Of a stretch of 64,000 bases of DNA, positions 6,957-63,201 are shown piece by piece. The DNA comes from Escherichia coli (GTDB taxonomy: Bacteria > Pseudomonadota > Gammaproteobacteria > Enterobacterales > Enterobacteriaceae). Position numbers and translations under genes: made by a program. Numbering within the stretch: the stretch's first letter is position 1; every line of letters begins with the position of its first letter. A model generated the notes under the pieces. The model did no database searches and was not told the origin of the DNA. It worked only from the letters and a program-made list of their open reading frames with translations. Location: assembly GCF_965641715.1 (NCBI RefSeq), contig NZ_OZ282453.1; one strand, 5' to 3'.

Positions 6957-6983
6957 AAAAAATAAGCCCGTGTAAGGGAGATT
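6957..6983. other. P2-type attachment site core (prophage attR), identical to the 3' end of cyaR
   Basis: Sequence AAAAAATAAGCCCGTGTAAGGGAGATT matches the 27-nt P2 att core as I recall it; lies at the junction between prophage cargo and the host cyaR gene. Confidence 0.55.
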
Positions 6984-7043
6984 ACACAGGCTAAGGAGGT
7001 GGTTCCTGGTACAGCTAGCATTTTATGGGTTATGTTTTTCAGC
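6957..7043 (-). ncRNA. cyaR: CyaR (RyeE) Hfq-dependent sRNA
   Basis: Minus-strand sequence GCUGAAAAACAUAACCCAUAAAAUGCUAGCUGUACCAGGAACCACCUCCUUAGCCUGUGUAAUCUCCCUUACACGGGCUUAUUUUUU matches CyaR from memory, including the CCUCCU anti-SD loop and terminator; a TGTGA CRP half-site lies about 40 nt upstream. Confidence 0.8.
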
Positions 7044-7127
7044 GAAGCGGATGATAACCTTAATAAATGCAGCTGTATGTGATCGGTTTCTAAGAATTTT
7101 CCATCCGGGAAAAATAATCGAAATTAA

Positions 7128-21129: not shown

Positions 21130-21270
21130 GCCCCTCCCGAGGAAGGGGCCATAAATAAGGAAAGGGTCATGATGAAGATACTCATCATCGTGGTGCTCTT
21201 AGTGATTAGCTACCCAGCATACTAAGACTACCAGGGCGGGGGAACCCCCGCTCTACCCTCACTCCTGAAA
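21130..21270 (-). ncRNA. Sib-family antisense sRNA (antitoxin), copy 1; boundaries approximate
   Basis: Inferred from the Ibs/Sib architecture: Sib RNAs are about 140 nt and fully complementary to the ibs ORF on the opposite strand; ends not determinable from sequence alone. Confidence 0.4.
21169..21225 (+). CDS. Ibs-family type I toxin peptide, copy 1 (MMKILIIVVLLVISYPAY)
   Basis: 18-codon ORF with ATGATG start and hydrophobic core, hand-translated from the repeat unit; not in ORF track (below size cutoff). Confidence 0.6.
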   Translation: MMKILIIVVLLVISYPAY

Positions 21271-21457
21271 GTATGCCTTCACGTTCAGAATGTCAATCCG
21301 CAGGCTTTGCAGTCTGCGATCCTGCCAGCAAATATTCTTTGCGAGACGTTACGCAATAATCACACTTGAAACTATTTTATCCGCAAGTCAGCGATAGACT
21401 GCATACAGGGCGAAAGGAGGTAAGCCGAAGATTTCAGCGGGACGCTGAAACGGGAAA

Positions 21458-21598
21458 GCCCCTCCCGAGGAAGGGGCCTTAAATAAGGAAAGGGTCATGA
21501 TGAAGTGGATCATCATCGTGGTGCTCTTAGTTATTAGCTTGCCGGCTTACTAAGTCATCAAAGCGGGGGAAACCCCGCTCTACCCTCACTCCTGAAAG
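21458..21598 (-). ncRNA. Sib-family antisense sRNA, copy 2; boundaries approximate
   Basis: As copy 1, by repeat periodicity. Confidence 0.4.
21497..21553 (+). CDS. Ibs-family type I toxin peptide, copy 2 (MMKWIIIVVLLVISLPAY)
   Basis: 18-codon ORF at the equivalent position of repeat unit 2. Confidence 0.6.
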   Translation: MMKWIIIVVLLVISLPAY

Positions 21599-21784
21599 TA
21601 TGCCTTCACGGTCAGATTGTCAATCCGCAGGCTTTGCAGTCTGCGATCCTGCCAGCAAATATTCTTTGCGAGGCGTTACGCAATAATCACACTTGAAACT
21701 ATTTTATCCGCAAGTCAGCGATAGACTGCATACAGGGCGAAAGGAGGTAAGCCGAAGATTTCAGCGGGACGCTGAAACGGGAAA

Positions 21785-21925
21785 GCCCCTCCCGAGGAAG
21801 GGGCCTTAAATAAGGAAAGGGTCATGATGAAGCTACTCATCATCGTGGTGCTCTTAGTCATAAGCTTCCCCGCTTACTAAGACTACCAGGGCGGGGGAAC
21901 CCCCGCTCTACCCTCATTCCTGAAA
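21785..21925 (-). ncRNA. Sib-family antisense sRNA, copy 3; boundaries approximate
   Basis: As copy 1, by repeat periodicity. Confidence 0.4.
21824..21880 (+). CDS. Ibs-family type I toxin peptide, copy 3 (MMKLLIIVVLLVISFPAY)
   Basis: 18-codon ORF at the equivalent position of repeat unit 3. Confidence 0.6.
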   Translation: MMKLLIIVVLLVISFPAY

Positions 21926-22112
21926 GTATGCCTTCACGGTCAGATTGTCAATCTGCAGGCTTTGCAGTCTGCGATCCTGCCAGCAAATATTCTTTGCGAG
22001 ACGTTACGCAATAATCACACTGGAAACTATTTTATCCGCAAGTCAGCGATAGACTGCATGCATGGCGAAAGGAGGTAAGCCGACGATTTCAGCGGGATGC
22101 TGAAACGGGAAA

Positions 22113-22256
22113 GCCCCTCCCGAGGAAGGGGCCTTAAATAAGGAAAGGGTTATGATGAAGCACGTCATCATACTGGTGATACTCTTAGTGATTAGCTTCC
22201 AGGCTTACTAAGAACACCAGGGGGAGGGGGAAACCTCTCCTAACCCTCACTTCTGA
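22113..22256 (-). ncRNA. Sib-family antisense sRNA, copy 4; boundaries approximate
   Basis: As copy 1, by repeat periodicity. Confidence 0.4.
22152..22211 (+). CDS. Ibs-family type I toxin peptide, copy 4 (MMKHVIILVILLVISFQAY)
   Basis: 19-codon ORF in the most diverged, yegL-proximal repeat unit; closest to K-12 IbsA as I recall it. Confidence 0.6.
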   Translation: MMKHVIILVILLVISFQAY

Positions 22257-22430
22257 AATTATGTCACTCCGCCCTTAGTGTCAATCGACGGCTCTCCGTT
22301 CTTGCGAGGCGAATAGCAAAATTTTCTGCGCCGCCGGGCCTAATTCTGAAAGTTTCTTCGTTTGCTCTTATTTCATTATTGCAATCGGTATGATACCGGA
22401 CCTCAATAATTCTCTAAGAAAGGATTTCTT

Positions 22431-35507: not shown

Positions 35508-37091
35508 TCACACCTCGTACTCCATCTCGCCATCCTTACGCAGCGGTATAATCTGCACCTTCTGCACGCGATGGCTTTCTACCTGCAACGTTTTAAGCAA
35601 ATAATCCCCCACCTGAACTTCTTCGCCAGGTTTTGGAATACGCTGCAAATATTCCATCAATAGCCCGGCAATGGTGTGATATTCACGTTTTTCATCCAGC
35701 GGCAGCGGCACATATTGCACCAGATCTTCCAGCGGCATATGACCATTCGCCGTCCAGGAACCGTCCGCATTCTTCTGAATATCATGGCGGGCGTCGATCT
35801 CTTCCACTTCGTTCGGTAAGTTACCGGCAATGGTTTCAGTGACGTCACTTAATGTCACAATCCCTTCCACCGAGCCAAACTCATCCACCACAAAAGCAAA
35901 GTGCGTGCGGGCATTACGGAACTGCTCCAGGGCAGGTAACAACGGCAAGGTTTCCGGGAACACCAGCGGCTGGCGAATCAACACCCGCAGGTTGAGCGGT
36001 TCGCCGCGCAGAGACTGTTGTAGCAGGTCGATAACGTGAACAACACCGAGCAAATCTTCTGCGTCATCACCGTCGGTAACCACCAGCCGCGTATGCTGAT
36101 TTCGCTCCAGCAACTGGCGGATTTCTTCTTCCGGCGCGTTGAGATCGATATGCTCAATATCGTGGCGCGACGTCATAATGCTGCTGACGGTACGCTGGTT
36201 AAGATTAAGTACCCGCTCAATCATCCGCCGTTCCTGCGGATTAAAGATCTGCTGGTTACCATGATCCACCAGCATGGACGCGGTTTCGGCGTCCAGTTCC
36301 GCATCTTCTTTTTGCCCGCTAAGCAGGCGCATTACCGCTTCGGTAGTCCGCTGGCGTAGCGTCTGGTTAGCGGAAAGAAAACGTCGCCGGTTAAAGATAG
36401 CCAACTGATTGAGCGCCTCGATCATCACCGAGAAACCAATAGCAGCGTACAGGTAGCCTTTCGGAATGACGAAGCCGAAACCTTCTGCCACCAGGCTAAA
36501 GCCAATCATCAACAGGAAGCTTAAGCAGAGAATAACGATGGTCGGGTGACTGTTAACAAATTGCGTTAACGGCTTGCTGGCCATCAACATCAGGCTGATA
36601 GCGATAACCACGGCGGCCATCATGACCAGTAAATGGTCGACCATCCCGACGGCGGTAATCACTGAGTCGAGTGAGAAGATGGCGTCCAGTACCACAATTT
36701 GCGTCACCACGCCCCAGAACTTCGCACCTTTGCGTTGTGTGGGATTATTGCTGTCTTTCCCTTCCAGCCGTTCGTTCAGCTCCATCGTGGCTTTGAACAA
36801 CAGGAAGAAACCACCAAACAGCATGATTAAGTCGCGGGCGCTAAAGGTAAACGAGCGGAAGCTGAACAGCGGTTGAGTCAGGGTGACCAGCCAGGAGATT
36901 GACGCCAGCAGTAACAGGCGCATTAACATCGCCAGCAGCAGCCCGGTAACCCGTGCGCGGTCGCGCTGCTTCGGCGGTAGTTTTTCGGCGAGGATGGCAA
37001 TAAAGACCAGGTTATCAATGCCGAGGACCAGTTCGATCACAATCAGCGTGATTAACCCGGCCCAGATAGACGGATCGGCAATCCATTCCAT
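35508..37091 (-). CDS. yegH: TerC-family membrane protein with CBS-pair and CorC/HlyC C-terminal domains (YegH)
   Basis: 527-aa product starting [33 protein letters not shown]... inside the longer track ORF 35508-37157. Confidence 0.9.
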
Positions 37092-37540
37092 AGTAAGTAC
37101 AAAACCTATTCGTTGTATGACAAATGTCACAATTCGATCATGGATAAATCGGGGCAAAAATGCAATGTTGCAGCACTATTTATCTCATATTATTTGAGGG
37201 TAATAACCTCACATTATCCCTGAATTAAAAGTGGTAATAATAAAACATTATTTAAGAAATATCGCATGTGGAGACGCAATATTAAATATTGTCAACATAA
37301 AGAAACTCCTAAAAACCATATTGAATGACACTTAATATAATTCTTAAAAATAGCCAATTGCCGAATTGTTACCTTGCCTGCTATTCCGTTAGCTGTAACA
37401 CTTCCTCCTGCATTATTGGAGAGCCAATATTCAATTACCATAATGTCACCTTATATTCGGAAGTTAATTTCCGCAATAACCCTTTCTCATCAACGACTGT
37501 ATGTTGAGAGGGTTTTAAAAATTAAGCTAAATCAGTGTAT

Positions 37541-37571
37541 TGGTAGCTAAAAAGCCAGGGGCGGTAGCGTG
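37541..37571 (+). promoter_or_regulatory. JUMPstart element with ops site (GGCGGTAGCGTG) in the wza leader; RfaH-dependent antitermination signal
   Basis: TGGTAGCTAAAAAGCCAGGGGCGGTAGCGTG about 180 nt upstream of wza; exact match to ops consensus GGCGGTAGnnTG. Confidence 0.75.
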
Positions 37572-37749
37572 TCTGGATGCCTGAAAGACCAGTCTGAATT
37601 ATTCTGTCAATAGCCTGCGGATGAAATCAATTTTTTTAGGACTGATGCCAGTTAAATTTTTATTCAATTAACTGCAAGGTAAATGTGCATGGCGACATTG
37701 CTATTAATAGTGCACAGGATAATTACTCTGCCAAAGTGATAAATAAACA

Positions 37750-41509: not shown

Positions 41510-41560
41510 CTGCATTCGCACCGCCCCGTAGGCCGGATAAGGCGCTCACGCCGCATCCGG
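41510..41560. repeat. REP element between wzc and wcaA
   Basis: GCCGGATAAGGCGCTCACGCCGCATCCGGC palindrome. Confidence 0.7.
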
Positions 41561-41595
41561 CAAGCAAACCAGCTCATAAGCCGGGAGTACAACCT

Positions 41596-42926: not shown

Positions 42927-44140
42927 ATATTTTGCAATTTAATGTGCGACTGGCGGAAGGCGGGGCAGCAGGTGTGGCGTTAGATCTCCACCAGCGTGCG
43001 CTGCAACAGGGGCTGGCGTCACATTTTGTCTACGGCTACGGCAAAGGCGGCAAAGAGAGCGTCAGCCATCAAAACTATCCGCAGGTCATCAAACATACGC
43101 CGCGGATGACTGCGATGGCGAACATTGCCCTGTTTCGTCTGTTTAATCGCGATCTGTTCGGCAATTTCAATGAGTTATATCGCACCATTACTCGCACACC
43201 GGGTCCGGTGGTCCTGCATTTTCATGTGCTGCACAGCTACTGGTTGAATCTTAAGAGCGTGGTGCGCTTTTGCGAAAAAGTGAAAAACCACAAACCGGAT
43301 GTCACTCTGGTCTGGACGCTGCACGACCACTGGAGCGTTACCGGGCGCTGCGCCTTTACCGACGGTTGTGAAGGCTGGAAAACGGGCTGCCAGAAATGCC
43401 CGACCTTAAATAATTATCCGCCGGTGAAGATTGATCGGGCGCACCAGCTGGTGGCGGGCAAACGCCAGTTATTCCTTGAGATGCTGGTGCTGGGCTGTCA
43501 GTTTATTTCCCCCAGCCAGCATGTGGCTGACGCTTTCAATAGCCTGTACGGTCCAGGGCGTTGCCGGATCATCAATAATGGCATTGATATGGCAACCGAA
43601 GCGATTCTGGCGGATTTGCCTCCGGTGCGCGAAACTCAGGGCAAGCCGAAAATCGCGGTGGTAGCGCATGACCTGCGTTACGACGGCAAAACTAACCAGC
43701 ACCTGGTGCGCGAGATGATGGCGCTGGACGACAAAATCGAACTGCATACCTTCGGTAAGTTCTCGCCGTTCACCGCTGGCAACGTGGTCAATCACGGCTT
43801 TGAAACCGACAAACGTAAGCTGATGAGCGCGCTCAATCAGATGGATGCGCTGGTATTCAGTTCTCGCGTCGATAACTACCCGCTGATTTTGTGTGAGGCG
43901 TTATCAATTGGCGTGCCGGTGATTGCCACCCATAGCGACGCGGCGCGTGAAGTGTTGCAAAAATCCGGCGGTAAAACCGTCAGCGAAGAAGAGGTGCTGC
44001 AACTGGTCCAGTTAAGCAAACCGGAAATCGCGCAGGCGATATTTGGTACCACGCTGGCTGAGTTCAGCCAACGCAGCCGCGCCGCCTACAGTGGACAACA
44101 GATGCTGGAGGAGTATGTCAACTTCTATCAGAATCTGTAG
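42923..44140 (+). CDS. wcaC: Colanic acid glycosyltransferase WcaC (GT4)
   Basis: 405-aa ORF; synteny. Confidence 0.9.
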   Translation: MNILQFNVRLAEGGAAGVALDLHQRALQQGLASHFVYGYGKGGKESVSHQNYPQVIKHTPRMTAMANIALFRLFNRDLFGNFNELYRTITRTPGPVVLHFHVLHSYWLNLKSVVRFCEKVKNHKPDVTLVWTLHDHWSVTGRCAFTDGCEGWKTGCQKCPTLNNYPPVKIDRAHQLVAGKRQLFLEMLVLGCQFISPSQHVADAFNSLYGPGRCRIINNGIDMATEAILADLPPVRETQGKPKIAVVAHDLRYDGKTNQHLVREMMALDDKIELHTFGKFSPFTAGNVVNHGFETDKRKLMSALNQMDALVFSSRVDNYPLILCEALSIGVPVIATHSDAAREVLQKSGGKTVSEEEVLQLVQLSKPEIAQAIFGTTLAEFSQRSRAAYSGQQMLEEYVNFYQNL

Positions 44141-45332
44141 CTACCTGCTGCTGCCGCTGATCTACCTGCTGGTTAACGTCAAAATCGCCCAGCTTGGCGA
44201 AAGTTTCCCCATCACCATCGTCACTTTTTTACCTGTCTTGTTACTGCTGTTTTTAGAACGCATCAGCGTTAAAAAATTGATGATTGCCTTAGGGATTGGC
44301 GCGGGACTCACGGCGTTTAACTACCTGTTTGGTCAGTCGTTGGATGCCAGTAAATACGTCACTTCAACCATGCTGTTTGTCTATATTGTGATCATTATTG
44401 GCATGGTGTGGAGTATTCGCTTTAAAACGATTTCGCCACACAACCATCGCAAGATATTACGTTTCTTTTATCTGGTGGTCGGACTGGTGGTGGCGCTGGC
44501 GGCGGTGGAGATGGCGCAAATTATCCTCACCGGTGGCAGTAGTATTATGGAGTCGATTTCGAAATATCTGATTTACAGCAACAGCTATGTGCTGAATTTC
44601 ATCAAATTCGGCGGCAAGCGCACGACAGCACTTTATTTCGAACCGGCATTTTTCGCTCTGGCATTAATCTCAATTTGGCTCAGCATCAAACAGTTTGGTA
44701 TCAAAACGCCTAAAACCGATGCTATGATTCTCGCAGGGATAATATTATCCGGATCGTTTTCAGGGGTTATGACCTTTATCCTGTTTTATTTGCTGGAGTG
44801 GGCATTTCAATATCTGAATAAAGAGGCGATTAAGAAAAAGTTACCGTTAGCATTGATTTCTCTGGCTGTATTCCTGGTTGGTGTGGTAATCGCGTTTCCT
44901 TATATTTCCACCCGTCTGGGCGATTTAGGTACGGAAGGATCGTCATCGTATTATCGTATTGTCGGTCCGCTGGTGATGGTCGGTTATTCTTTGACCCATA
45001 TTGACGGTGTAGTCAGATTTGGCTCACTTTATGAATATGTTGCATCATTCGGAATATTTAACGGTGCGGATGTCGGAAAAACCATAGACAATGGTTTGTA
45101 TCTGCTGATTATTTATTTTTCCTGGTTCGCGGTGTTTTTATCGCTGTGGTACATGGGGAAAGTGATAAAAATGATGATCAACGCTTTTGGTGATAACCGC
45201 AATTTTCGCGTGCAATTATATCTTTTTACTCCGGTATCGCTGTTTTTTACCGGTTCGATATTTAGCCCGGAATATGCATTTTTAATCGTCTGTCCGTTTA
45301 TTTTGCGAAAAGCGTTAAATATTACGAGGTAA
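44115..45332 (+). CDS. wcaD: Colanic acid polymerase WcaD (Wzy-like)
   Basis: 405-aa polytopic membrane product starting [19 protein letters not shown]... inside track ORF 44043-45332; overlaps wcaC 3' end. Confidence 0.9.
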
Positions 45333-45342
45333 GAATAAGAAC

Positions 45343-46089
45343 ATGTTGCTTAGCATAATCACTGTCGCGTTTCGTAACCTCGAAGGGATAGTCAAAACAT
45401 ATGCCTCGCTGGCGCATCTGGCGCAGGCGGACGATATCAGCTTCGAATGGATTGTTGTCGATGGCGGTTCCAACGATGGCACCCGTGAGTATCTGGAAAA
45501 TCTCAATGGTATCTATAACCTACGCTTTGTCAGCGAGCCAGATAACGGTATCTACGACGCCATGAACAAAGGCATTGCGATGGCACAAGGCAAGTTCGCG
45601 TTGTTTCTCAACTCAGGTGATATTTTTCATCAGGATGCCGCAAATTTTGTCCGTAAGTTAAAAGTGCAAAAAGATAACGTGATGATCACCGGCGATGCGC
45701 TGCTGGATTTTGGCGACGGGCATAAAATTAAACGTAGCGCCAAACCGGGTTGGTATATTTATCACAGCCTGCCCGCCAGTCATCAGGCGATATTTTTCCC
45801 GGTATCCGGTTTGAAAAAATGGCGTTATGACCTGGAATATAAAGTTTCTTCTGATTACGCGCTGGCAGCCAAAATGTATAAAGCCGGTTATGCATTTAAA
45901 AAACTCAATGGTCTGGTGTCTGAATTTTCTATGGGTGGGGTATCAACCACCAATAATATGGAATTATGTGCTGACGCCAAAAAAGTCCAACGGCAAATAT
46001 TACATGTGCCTGGCTTCTGGGCAGAATTATCCTGGCATTTACGCCAGCGTACTACCTCAAAGACGAAAGCCTTATATAACAAAAGCTGA
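45343..46089 (+). CDS. wcaE: Colanic acid glycosyltransferase WcaE (GT2)
   Basis: 248-aa ORF; synteny. Confidence 0.9.
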
Positions 46090-52020: not shown

Positions 52021-52102
52021 CGAAACCGCGGTGTAAATAACGACAAAAACAAAATTGGCCGTTTCGGTCAGGGCCAACTATTGCCTGAAAAAGGGTAACG
52101 AT

Positions 52103-56439: not shown

Positions 56440-56715
<276 letters not shown>

Positions 56716-59281: not shown

Positions 59282-60676
59282 ATGCCATTTAAAACACTCT
59301 CCCGACGCACCTTCCTGACGGCAAGCTCGGCGCTTGCCTTCCTCCATACCCCTTTCGCTCGCGCACTTCCCGCCCGACAAAGCGTTAACATTAACGACTA
59401 CAACCCTCACGACTGGATCGCCTCATTTAAACAAGCCTTCAGCGAAGGGCAAACGGTCGTCGTGCCTGCTGGATTCGTTTGTGACAATATCAACACCGGC
59501 ATCTTCATCCCTCCCGGCAAAACGTTACACATCCTTGGAAGCCTGCGCGGCAACGGCAGAGGGCGATTTGTCTTACAGGACGGCAGCCAGGTGACAGGGG
59601 AGGAGGGCGGCAGTATGCATAACATCACCCTGGATGTGCGAGGCTCTGACTGCACCATCAAAGGGCTGGCGATGAGCGGCTTTGGTCCGGTAACGCAGAT
59701 TTATATCGGCGGCAAAAACAAACGGGTCATGCGCAACCTGACCATCGATAATCTCACCGTTAACCACGCTAATTACGCTATTTTGCGCCAGGGATTTCAT
59801 AACCAGATTATCGGTGCCAACATCACCAACTGTAAATTTAGTGATTTACAGGGCGACGCCATTGAATGGAACGTGGCGATTAACGACCGTGATATTTTGA
59901 TATCTGACCATGTCATCGAGCGCATCAACTGTACCAACGGCAAAATCAACTGGGGCATCGGCATAGGTCTTGCGGGAAGCACTTATGATAATAATTACCC
60001 GGAAGACCAGGCAGTGAAAAACTTTGTCGTGGCGAATATCACGGGAACGGATTGTCGGCAGTTGATCCATGTTGAAAATGGTAAACATTTTGTTATTCGT
60101 AATATCAAAGCCCGCAATATCACGCCGGATTTCAGTAAGAAAGCAGGTATTGATAACGCGACGGTCGCTATTTACGGTTGTGACAATTTCGCAATTGATA
60201 ATATTGAAATGATTAATAGCGCCGGGATGTTAATCGGCTATGGGGTAATTAAAGGCAAATATCTCTCGATACCGCAAAATTTCCGAGTGAATAATATTCA
60301 ACTGGATAACACCCATCTTGCTTATAAATTGCGCGGCATCCAAATCTCCGCTGGGAATGCCGTCTCCTTTGTGGCGCTGACTAACATTGAGATGAAGCGT
60401 GCGTCGCTGGAGTTACACAACAAACCGCAACACCTTTTTATGCGTAATATCAAGGTGATGCAGGAATCCTCAGTTGGACCCGCATTGAGCATGAACTTCG
60501 ACATGCGCAAAGACGTTCGCGGCGTCTTTATGGCGAAAAAAGAAACACTGCTGTCTCTTGCAAATGTTCATGCGGTGAATGAAAAAGGGCAAAGCTCCGT
60601 CGATATCGACAGAGTTAATCACCATATTGTTAATGTGGAAAAGATTAACTTTAGATTGCCGGAACGGAGGGAGTAG
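59282..60676 (+). CDS. wcaM: Colanic acid biosynthesis protein WcaM (putative Tat-exported, beta-helix)
   Basis: 464-aa ORF with twin-arginine-like N-terminus ([22 protein letters not shown]). Confidence 0.9.
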
Positions 60677-60850
60677 ATTTGCGACCATTCCTGGAAAAAT
60701 GGAGCCATACTTAGGAACAATGCTACTGCAATCCACAACGAAGCGGCGTAACATCACAAGTAATTCAGTAATCAATTCAGGGTAATTGATGCTGGCGAAA
60801 AAAATCGAACAAGCTATAATTCAGCAACCATTTTACAGGTGGATGAAATA

Positions 60851-61744
60851 ATGACGAATTTAAAAGCAGTTATTCCTGTAGCGGGTCTTGGGATGCATAT
60901 GTTGCCTGCCACTAAGGCGATTCCCAAAGAGATGCTACCGATCGTCGACAAGCCAATGATTCAGTACATTGTTGACGAGATTGTGGCTGCAGGGATCAAA
61001 GAAATCCTCCTGGTAACTCACGCGTCCAAGAACGCGGTCGAAAACCACTTCGACACCTCTTATGAGTTAGAGTCTCTCCTTGAACAGCGCGTGAAGCGTC
61101 AGCTGCTGGCGGAAGTGCAGTCCATCTGTCCACCGGGCGTGACCATTATGAACGTGCGTCAGGGCGAACCTTTAGGTTTAGGCCACTCCATTTTGTGTGC
61201 ACGACCCGCCATTGGTGACAATCCATTTGTCGTGGTGCTGCCAGACGTTGTGATCGACGACGCCAGCGCCGACCCGCTGCGTTACAACCTTGCTGCCATG
61301 ATTGCACGTTTCAATGAAACGGGCCGCAGTCAGGTGCTGGCAAAACGTATGCCGGGTGACCTCTCTGAATACTCGGTCATCCAGACCAAAGAACCGCTGG
61401 ATCGCGAAGGTAAAGTCAGCCGCATCGTCGAATTTATCGAAAAACCGGATCAGCCGCAGACGCTGGACTCAGACATCATGGCCGTTGGTCGCTATGTGCT
61501 TTCTGCCGATATTTGGCCGGAACTGGAACGTACTCAGCCTGGTGCATGGGGGCGTATTCAGCTGACTGATGCCATCGCTGAACTGGCGAAAAAACAGTCC
61601 GTTGATGCCATGCTGATGACAGGTGACAGCTACGACTGCGGTAAAAAAATGGGCTATATGCAAGCGTTCGTGAAGTATGGGCTACGCAACCTCAAAGAAG
61701 GGGCGAAGTTCCGTAAAGGGATTGAGAAGCTGTTAAGCGAATAA
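60851..61744 (+). CDS. galF: UTP-glucose-1-phosphate uridylyltransferase regulatory paralogue GalF
   Basis: 297-aa product [32 protein letters not shown]...; ATG at 60851 inside track ORF 60839-61744. Confidence 0.95.
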
Positions 61745-62009
61745 TGAAAATCTGACCGGATGTAACGGTTGATAAGAAAATTATAACGGCAGTGAAGATT
61801 CGTGGCGAAAGTAATTTGTTGCGAATTTTCCTGCCGTTGTTTTATATAAACAATCAGAATAACAAGGAGTTAGCAATAGGATTTTAGTCAAAGTTTTCCA
61901 GGATTTTCCTTGTTTCCAGAGCGGATTGGTAAGACAATTAGCGTTTGAATTTTTCGGGTTTAGCGCGAGTGGGTAACGCTCGTCACATCGTAGGCATGCA
62001 TGCAGTGCT

Positions 62010-62041
62010 CTGGTAGCTGTAAAGCCAGGGGCGGTAGCGTG
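62010..62041 (+). promoter_or_regulatory. JUMPstart element with ops site (GGCGGTAGCGTG) upstream of the O-antigen (rfb) operon
   Basis: CTGGTAGCTGTAAAGCCAGGGGCGGTAGCGTG about 75 nt upstream of rfbB; near-duplicate of the element upstream of wza. Confidence 0.75.
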
Positions 62042-62115
62042 CATTAATACCTCTATTAATCAAACTAAGAGCCGCTTATTTCACAGCATGCTCTGAAGTA
62101 ATATGGAATAAAAGA

Positions 62116-63201
62116 GTGAAGATACTTGTTACTGGTGGCGCAGGATTTATTGGTTCTGCTGTAGTTCGTCACATTATAAATAATACGCAGGATAGTGTTG
62201 TTAATGTCGATAAATTAACGTACGCCGGAAACCTGGAATCACTTGCTGATGTTTCTGATTCTGAACGCTATATTTTTGAACATGCGGATATTTGCGATGC
62301 TGCTGCAATGGCACGGATTTTTGCTCAGCATCAGCCGGATGCAGTGATGCACTTGGCTGCTGAAAGCCATGTTGACCGTTCAATTACAGGTCCTGCGGCA
62401 TTTATTGAAACCAATATTGTTGGTACTTATGTCCTTTTGGAAGCCGCTCGCAATTACTGGTCTGCTCTTGATAGCGACAAGAAAAATAGCTTCCGTTTTC
62501 ATCATATTTCTACTGACGAAGTATATGGTGATTTGCCTCATCCTGACGAGGTAAATAATACAGAAGAATTACCCTTATTTACTGAGACAACAGCTTACGC
62601 GCCAAGCAGCCCTTATTCCGCATCCAAAGCATCCAGCGATCATTTAGTCCGCGCGTGGAAACGTACCTATGGTTTACCGACCATTGTGACTAATTGCTCT
62701 AACAATTATGGTCCTTATCATTTCCCGGAAAAATTGATTCCATTGGTTATTCTCAATGCTCTGGAAGGTAAAGCATTACCTATTTATGGTAAAGGGGATC
62801 AAATTCGCGACTGGCTGTATGTTGAAGATCATGCGCGTGCGTTATATACCGTCGTAACCGAAGGTAAAGCGGGTGAAACTTATAACATTGGTGGACACAA
62901 CGAAAAGAAAAACATCGATGTAGTGCTCACTATTTGTGATTTGTTAGATGAGATTGTCCCGAAAGAGAAATCTTACCGCGAGCAAATTACTTATGTTGCC
63001 GATCGTCCGGGACACGATCGCCGTTATGCGATTGATGCTGAGAACATTGGTCGCGAATTGGGATGGAAACCACAGGAAACGTTTGAGAGCGGGATTCGTA
63101 AAACGGTGGAATGGTACCTGTCCAATACAAAATGGGTTGATAATGTGAAAAGTGGTGCCTATCAATCGTGGATTGAACAGAACTATGAGGGCCGCCAGTA
63201 A
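62116..63201 (+). CDS. rfbB: dTDP-glucose 4,6-dehydratase (RmlB)
   Basis: 361-aa ORF, GTG start, SDR fold with [12 protein letters not shown]-binding motif. Confidence 0.95.

Follow-up and report, generated by a model that had tools for sequence, protein, structure and literature searches.

The window analysed here is a 64,000-nt stretch of an Escherichia coli chromosome in which asmA to yegH are followed by wza to wcaM, then by galF and rfbB. The divergent gene upstream of wza, yegH, encodes a TerC-family protein and occupies 35508-37091 on the minus strand, with its start codon at 37089-37091, as judged from the RefSeq annotation of a relative that is 99.8% identical. An earlier, sequence-only reading of this DNA had set the left limit of the intergenic region at 37158. 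That position is the edge of a TTG-extended version of yegH ending at 37157, the sole version in the list of open reading frames, and the yegH-wza intergenic region in fact spans 37092-37749, a correction that is new. A 657-bp query covering 37093-37749 was matched in 4831 of 5426 complete E. coli genomes and was covered over at least 80% of its length in 4818 of them, mostly at 95-99.8% identity. Against complete genomes, the best identity was 99.8% across the intergenic region and 97.7% across the downstream cluster.

The colanic-acid cluster was delimited from its open reading frames and from the genes annotated by RefSeq in a relative that is collinear with it and 97.7% identical over 25 kb. 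It extends over 22,927 bp (37750-60676) in the order wza, wzb, wzc, wcaA-F, gmd, fcl, gmm, wcaI, cpsB, cpsG, wcaJ, wzxC, wcaK, wcaL, and wcaM, entirely on the plus strand, and so bears out the earlier estimate of roughly 23 kb; galF and then rfbBDAC follow wcaM. Untranslated gaps of 92, 192, and 371 nt separate wzc from wcaA, cpsB from cpsG, and wzxC from wcaK, respectively. The wzc-wcaA gap holds a GC-rich, REP-type hairpin that lacks a U tract (41532-41561, plus strand; sequence and predicted fold), at the boundary beyond which RfaH has been reported to be necessary (PMC3673037). The cpsB-cpsG gap contains a match to the algC RNA motif (RF02929, 78 bits) at 52049-52098 on the plus strand, cpsG being a phosphomannomutase gene, and two naRNA4/REP-type elements (RF02564) lie at 56488-56654 on the minus strand in the wzxC-wcaK gap, the longest untranslated stretch within the operon. 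GC content falls to 0.43-0.46 over wcaD-wcaE (44000-46000), against about 0.54 in the rest of the cluster, and again to 0.42-0.43 in 60000-60999 and 62000-62999 (the end of wcaM, galF, and the start of the O-antigen genes), with 0.50 between these two intervals. Elsewhere in the window are four tandem copies of the SIB antitoxin RNA (21154-22284, minus strand, 127-142 bits each) and the CyaR sRNA (6960-7045, minus strand).

The leader of wza carries a 39-bp JUMPstart sequence, CAGTGTATTGGTAGCTAAAAAGCCAGGGGCGGTAGCGTG, at 37533-37571 on the plus strand. It matches Rfam family RF01707 over model positions 1-38 of 38 and scores 57.3 bits where the gathering cutoff is 35; with the whole window searched, the E value is 1.6e-10. 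The 3′ end of this element is the ops 12-mer GGCGGTAGCGTG (37560-37571), an exact match to the 12-nt consensus GGCGGTAGnnTG for the RfaH recruitment and pause site. It lies 190 nt upstream of the wza ATG (37750) in the same sense as wza, which places it on the non-template strand, and it stands before the first gene of a unidirectional, 22.9-kb surface polysaccharide operon. The element is therefore the JUMPstart/ops of the colanic-acid operon leader, already described, and the initial identification of a JUMPstart with an exact ops holds in full. Only one other ops occurs in the window, at 62030-62041, where it ends a second JUMPstart (62003-62041, plus strand, 60 bits to RF01707) in the galF-rfbB leader of the O-antigen cluster. 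Two matches compare with 0.05 expected, and two or more were found in none of 100 shuffled sequences; both copies lie on the sense strand of polysaccharide operon leaders. Just upstream of the wza JUMPstart, in the predicted leader, a hairpin formed by CCCTTTCTCA and TGAGAGGG and followed by TTTT (37480-37516) resembles a terminator, but its loop is 15 nt long, its T run is short, and it is specific to Escherichia, not conserved in other genera.

Conservation was assessed by scanning species-representative genomes for Wza, which yielded 80 loci from about 25 enterobacterial genera, including Escherichia, Citrobacter, Salmonella, Enterobacter, Lelliottia, Kosakonia, Phytobacter, Franconibacter, Atlantibacter, Trabulsiella, Buttiauxella, and Cedecea; 79 of these loci had upstream sequence. 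JUMPstart is kept in 75 of the 79 orthologous leaders. Of the 72 loci with an exact ops, 71 have it between -188 and -199 relative to the wza ATG and one (L046) has it at -308; a further four loci carry ops with a single mismatch at the equivalent position. Neither JUMPstart nor ops was found within 1 kb upstream of wza in the remaining three loci (L036, L037, and L040), which belong to Pseudescherichia vulneris (L040), Escherichia sp. ESNIH1, and a related MAG. The element is thus not indispensable in every lineage. These three leaders retain the promoter blocks and the proximal and downstream leader described below, and so present a natural loss of the RfaH site.

RfaH replaces NusG on RNA polymerase, suppresses pausing and Rho-dependent termination, and couples a ribosome to the transcribing enzyme. 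ChIP-seq of RfaH in E. coli CFT073 revealed association with the wza ops and signal extending from wza to wcaL (PMC9765446, Hustmyer et al. 2022), and the CFT073 site is the identical 12-mer, 190 nt before the first gene (PMC9765446, Data set S2). The signal on wza was seen in a Δhns ΔstpA background and was absent in ΔrfaH. In wild-type CFT073 grown in rich medium the wza operon is silent, initiation being blocked by H-NS, and wza-wcaM was accordingly termed a cryptic RfaH-regulated locus that requires an initiation signal; RfaH was also found to suppress H-NS roadblocks (all PMC9765446). Colanic-acid genes downstream of wzc are reported to require RfaH (PMC3673037), and the wca operon has been described as subject to JUMPstart-RfaH antitermination under RcsA/RcsB control (PMC9976346, citing Stout 1996 and Hobbs & Reeves 1994). 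The RfaH-dependent antitermination across the cluster that had been proposed from the sequence is therefore supported, both by ChIP on the homologous CFT073 ops at -190 and by this literature. RfaH-dependent reading of the wza leader is already known, and for the present strain both RfaH binding and the dependence of the distal genes are taken from work on other strains.

Might the ops match be a chance occurrence, or a relic without present function in this strain? The silence of the operon under laboratory conditions (PMC9765446) and the loss of the element from some related lineages would agree with such a reading. However, the chance expectation of 0.05 per window, the E value of the RF01707 match, and the occupancy of the identical CFT073 site by RfaH all speak against it, and the conservation of the ops position across about 25 genera rules out a chance match. 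Conservation and ChIP together effectively refute this explanation, to which we attach almost no weight. It is improbable, though less drastically so, that JUMPstart is mainly an RNA element, whose UUGGU/GCCAG hairpin acts in the transcript, possibly switching with a downstream UGCCAGU, and that it is not a DNA-level site for RfaH. Rfam indeed places the family among the cis-regulatory RNAs and models a hairpin of 5 bp, the 27 bases preceding ops are conserved to the same degree as ops, and RNAalifold pairs AUUGGUA of JUMPstart with a conserved UGCCAGU about 100 nt downstream. Yet compensatory changes are absent from all 14 predicted pairs, the single-sequence fold is no better than that of shuffled sequences (z = -1.33), and the RfaH ChIP at the CFT073 ops provides a sufficient mechanism at the level of DNA. 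A role in the transcript and a DNA-level role through RfaH are, moreover, not mutually exclusive.

The sequence-only reading had also expected the cps promoter and an RcsAB box further upstream in the divergent yegH-wza region. Candidates for both were placed here by cross-genus footprinting of the 79-locus alignment, which revealed five conserved blocks upstream of JUMPstart. Two of these, CCTTGCCTG (37372-37380) and TTAGCTGyAACAmT (37389-37402), are conserved in 73-79 of the 79 loci, with a stretch between them that varies in sequence but not in length. They contain the predicted cps promoter (37374-37402, plus strand), with a -35 hexamer TTGCCT at 37374-37379, a 17-bp spacer, an extended -10 TG at 37394-37395, and a weak -10 hexamer, AACACT, at 37397-37402, where most genera have AACAAT. 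This TTGCCT/AACACT pair is new, near-invariant, and promoter-like, and its location agrees with the expectation of a promoter further upstream. Transcription from it is predicted to start at about 37409-37410, which would give a leader of about 340 nt with ops at about +151. A start near 37410 would place ops within the transcribed leader, and the RfaH ChIP at the homologous CFT073 ops points to its being transcribed. A generic promoter scan reported a single site, TGGAGA-16-CATAAT at 37417-37444, which was set aside as the stretch is not conserved; the TTGCCT/AACACT pair was not reported by that scan. A 49-aa hypothetical protein (WP_162829205.1) is annotated by PGAP in many E. coli genomes at 37292-37441 on the minus strand. 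Its reading frame is intact in only two of the 79 loci and runs across the conserved promoter blocks, so the annotation is probably spurious.

The other three upstream blocks are new and carry RcsB-type half-sites, and an RcsAB operator is a candidate function among them. The consensus used for the RcsAB box was TaAGaatatTCcta (PMC4325325), and the RcsB half-site is TTAGGAA/TCTAAGA, in which TA(A/G)GA is contacted by RcsB in the flhDC complex (PMC5829831). By our own estimate about 0.3 chance matches to TaAGaatatTCcta are expected in the region. The motif alone is thus weak, and conservation carries the weight for the candidate boxes. Box 1, TAAGAAATATCGCA, at 37253-37266 on the plus strand, contains a perfect TAAGA half-site and agrees with the consensus at 5/5 of the most-conserved positions and at 9/14 overall, and no other such 14-mer here has A as its last base. 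Its cross-genus consensus is TAGGAwATATCGCA, with individual positions conserved in 58-73 of the 79 loci. Box 2 lies in the block TTGTCAACATAAAGAAACTCCTAAAA (37289-37314), which has a half-site reading TCCTA on the plus strand, that is, TAGGA on the minus strand. Two overlapping 14-mers can be drawn within it, one at 37298-37311 on the plus strand (10/14) and one at 37299-37312 on the minus strand, TTAGGAGTTTCTTT, with 5/5 core positions and 8/14 overall. The cross-genus form of this block, TTGTCAAyATmAAkAAAATCCTAAAA, is the most conserved of those upstream, most positions being identical in 72-79 of the 79 loci. Box 3 lies in the block CTTAATATAATTCTTAAAA (37331-37349), with the half-site TCTTA on the plus strand (TAAGA on the minus strand); its 14-mer at 37333-37346 agrees with TaAGaatatTCcta at 10/14 positions in either orientation and is near-invariant across the 79 loci. 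Each box offers only one good TA(A/G)GA half-site, and relative to the predicted start boxes 1, 2, and 3 are centered near -150, -105, and -70, respectively. A region of several RcsAB boxes far upstream of a promoter has a precedent at rcsA (PMC11879457). The scan for the RcsAB motif that the earlier reading had left to be done yields two sites with 5/5 core positions, box 1 on the plus strand and box 2 on the minus strand, and three candidate boxes with RcsB half-sites (37253-37346) lie where a box had been expected. A search of the full-text literature for the literal sequences of the candidate boxes returned unrelated papers only.

The block of box 3 also contains a perfect -10 hexamer, TATAAT, at 37336-37341, which raises the question of whether the E. 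coli cps promoter uses this hexamer and starts transcription near 37348. On that reading the center of box 1 would fall near -89, about where upstream activators typically sit, and the -10 would lie inside box 3. The hexamer is, however, specific to Escherichia, other genera having TATTAw (position 37339 is T in 76 of the 79 loci, and 37341, the critical last T, is split between A, in 43 loci, and T, in 36). The corresponding -35 region is not conserved, the block with its TAAGA half-site resembles a protein-binding site more than a -10, and the generic promoter scan did not report this hexamer either. From the alignment, TATAAT appears less likely to serve as the -10 than the TTGCCT/AACACT pair, and we regard a start near 37348 as unlikely.

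Between ops and wza, the conservation profile and the alignment reveal a further conserved stretch (37596-37749, plus strand) made up of four near-invariant blocks, TTATTCTGTCAATAG at 37596-37613, TTTTTAGGACTGATGCCAGTTA at 37633-37659, ATTAACTGCA at 37667-37680, and GCACAGGATAATTACTCTGCCAAAGTGATAAATAA at 37712-37749, the last directly preceding the ATG. The distance from ops to the ATG is fixed at 188-199 nt in 71 of the 79 loci, and the blocks persist in the loci that have lost JUMPstart. RNAalifold found no compensatory pairs in the leader alignment (0 covariation), the E. coli sequence downstream of ops folds no better than shuffled versions of itself (z = -0.15), and no Rfam family matched this part of the leader. 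GGA motifs of the CsrA type were noticed by eye in the alignment, but the Citrobacter and Salmonella sequences have lost the GGA, and no claim is made for these motifs. It is a tentative suggestion, and one we hold with more doubt than belief, that the wza leader carries a second cis-regulatory element downstream of ops. The blocks could bind a post-transcriptional regulator or an sRNA, load ribosomes in conjunction with RfaH, or act at the level of DNA as a silencer or anti-silencer. No published description of a second cis-regulatory element downstream of the wza ops was found, and this downstream leader is the one place in the locus where an undescribed feature might lie.

No usable Shine-Dalgarno sequence was found before the wza ATG: the predicted duplex, at -1.6 kcal/mol, is the weakest among the 16 cluster genes scored, the others ranging from about -2 to -12 kcal/mol. 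RfaH reportedly also has a ribosome-recruiting role (Burmann et al. 2012), and the weak site of wza fits both the first genes of RfaH-dependent operons and recruitment of the ribosome by RfaH. Within the cluster, sites resembling intrinsic terminators show no excess over shuffled sequences (24 against 23.7 expected), so that what RfaH overcomes is more likely to be Rho- or H-NS-dependent. We infer that the internal gaps offer entry sites for Rho, and the REP hairpin in the wzc-wcaA gap is likely to be an internal obstacle for the RfaH-modified polymerase.

Considered as a whole, the region is best read as a JUMPstart/ops regulatory region in which an Rcs-activated start in the yegH-wza region is followed by RfaH loading at ops and readthrough to wcaM, a reading to which we assign a probability of roughly 0.9. 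In the proposed sequence of events, the Rcs phosphorelay, through RcsB or RcsA-RcsB, would activate the weak predicted sigma-70 promoter at 37374-37402, with transcription beginning near 37410. About 150 nt into the leader of some 340 nt, RNA polymerase would transcribe JUMPstart and pause at ops (37560-37571), where the non-template ops strand, exposed on the surface of the paused complex, would be bound by RfaH, which would then stay in place of NusG. The RfaH-modified polymerase would be expected to pause less and to be shielded from Rho-dependent termination and from H-NS filaments, while RfaH may also recruit a ribosome to wza, a gene with essentially no Shine-Dalgarno sequence. Thus modified, the polymerase would cross the REP hairpin after wzc and the 192-nt cpsB-cpsG and 371-nt wzxC-wcaK gaps to reach wcaM, 23 kb downstream.

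E. coli and its relatives make colanic acid as a slime when the Rcs system is induced. The 23-kb operon behind it is a textbook case of a long operon that is kept silent and depends on two inputs, an initiation signal (RcsAB) and a processivity factor (RfaH). Confirmation of the element here adds nothing new to its biology. It does supply coordinates in this window for the intergenic limits, JUMPstart/ops, the predicted promoter, and the candidate Rcs boxes.

Compared with the colanic-acid (cps/wca) JUMPstart/ops of E. coli K-12 and CFT073, the element occupies the identical locus and shares both the 12-mer and its -190 spacing; nothing of substance differs, and the region of this strain is an allele of it. 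The O-antigen (rfb) leader after galF (62003-62041) shares the identical 12-mer within a 39-bp JUMPstart on the sense strand of a polysaccharide operon, but only about 75 nt separate ops from rfbB in that short leader, and the upstream half of its JUMPstart has a different sequence, CAGTGCTCTGGTAGCTGTAAAGCCAGG. The two also differ in state, the rfb operon being constitutively RfaH-bound in the wild type whereas wza is silenced (PMC9765446). Group 1 capsule clusters (K30/Klebsiella cps) likewise have a JUMPstart ahead of wza-wzb-wzc and a hairpin after wzc, which in those clusters separates the export genes from the serotype-specific genes. Their JUMPstart, however, lies between galF and wzi, wzi is the first gene, the chromosomal position is another, and the clusters are largely constitutive and not strictly Rcs-dependent (all PMC6128206). 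With respect to the RcsAB box (Wehland & Bernhard 2000), box 1 and the minus-strand box 2 agree with the consensus at all five core positions. Like the two-box RcsAB region of rcsA (PMC11879457), the wza region would place several boxes far upstream, with three candidates at wza, each having one good half-site.
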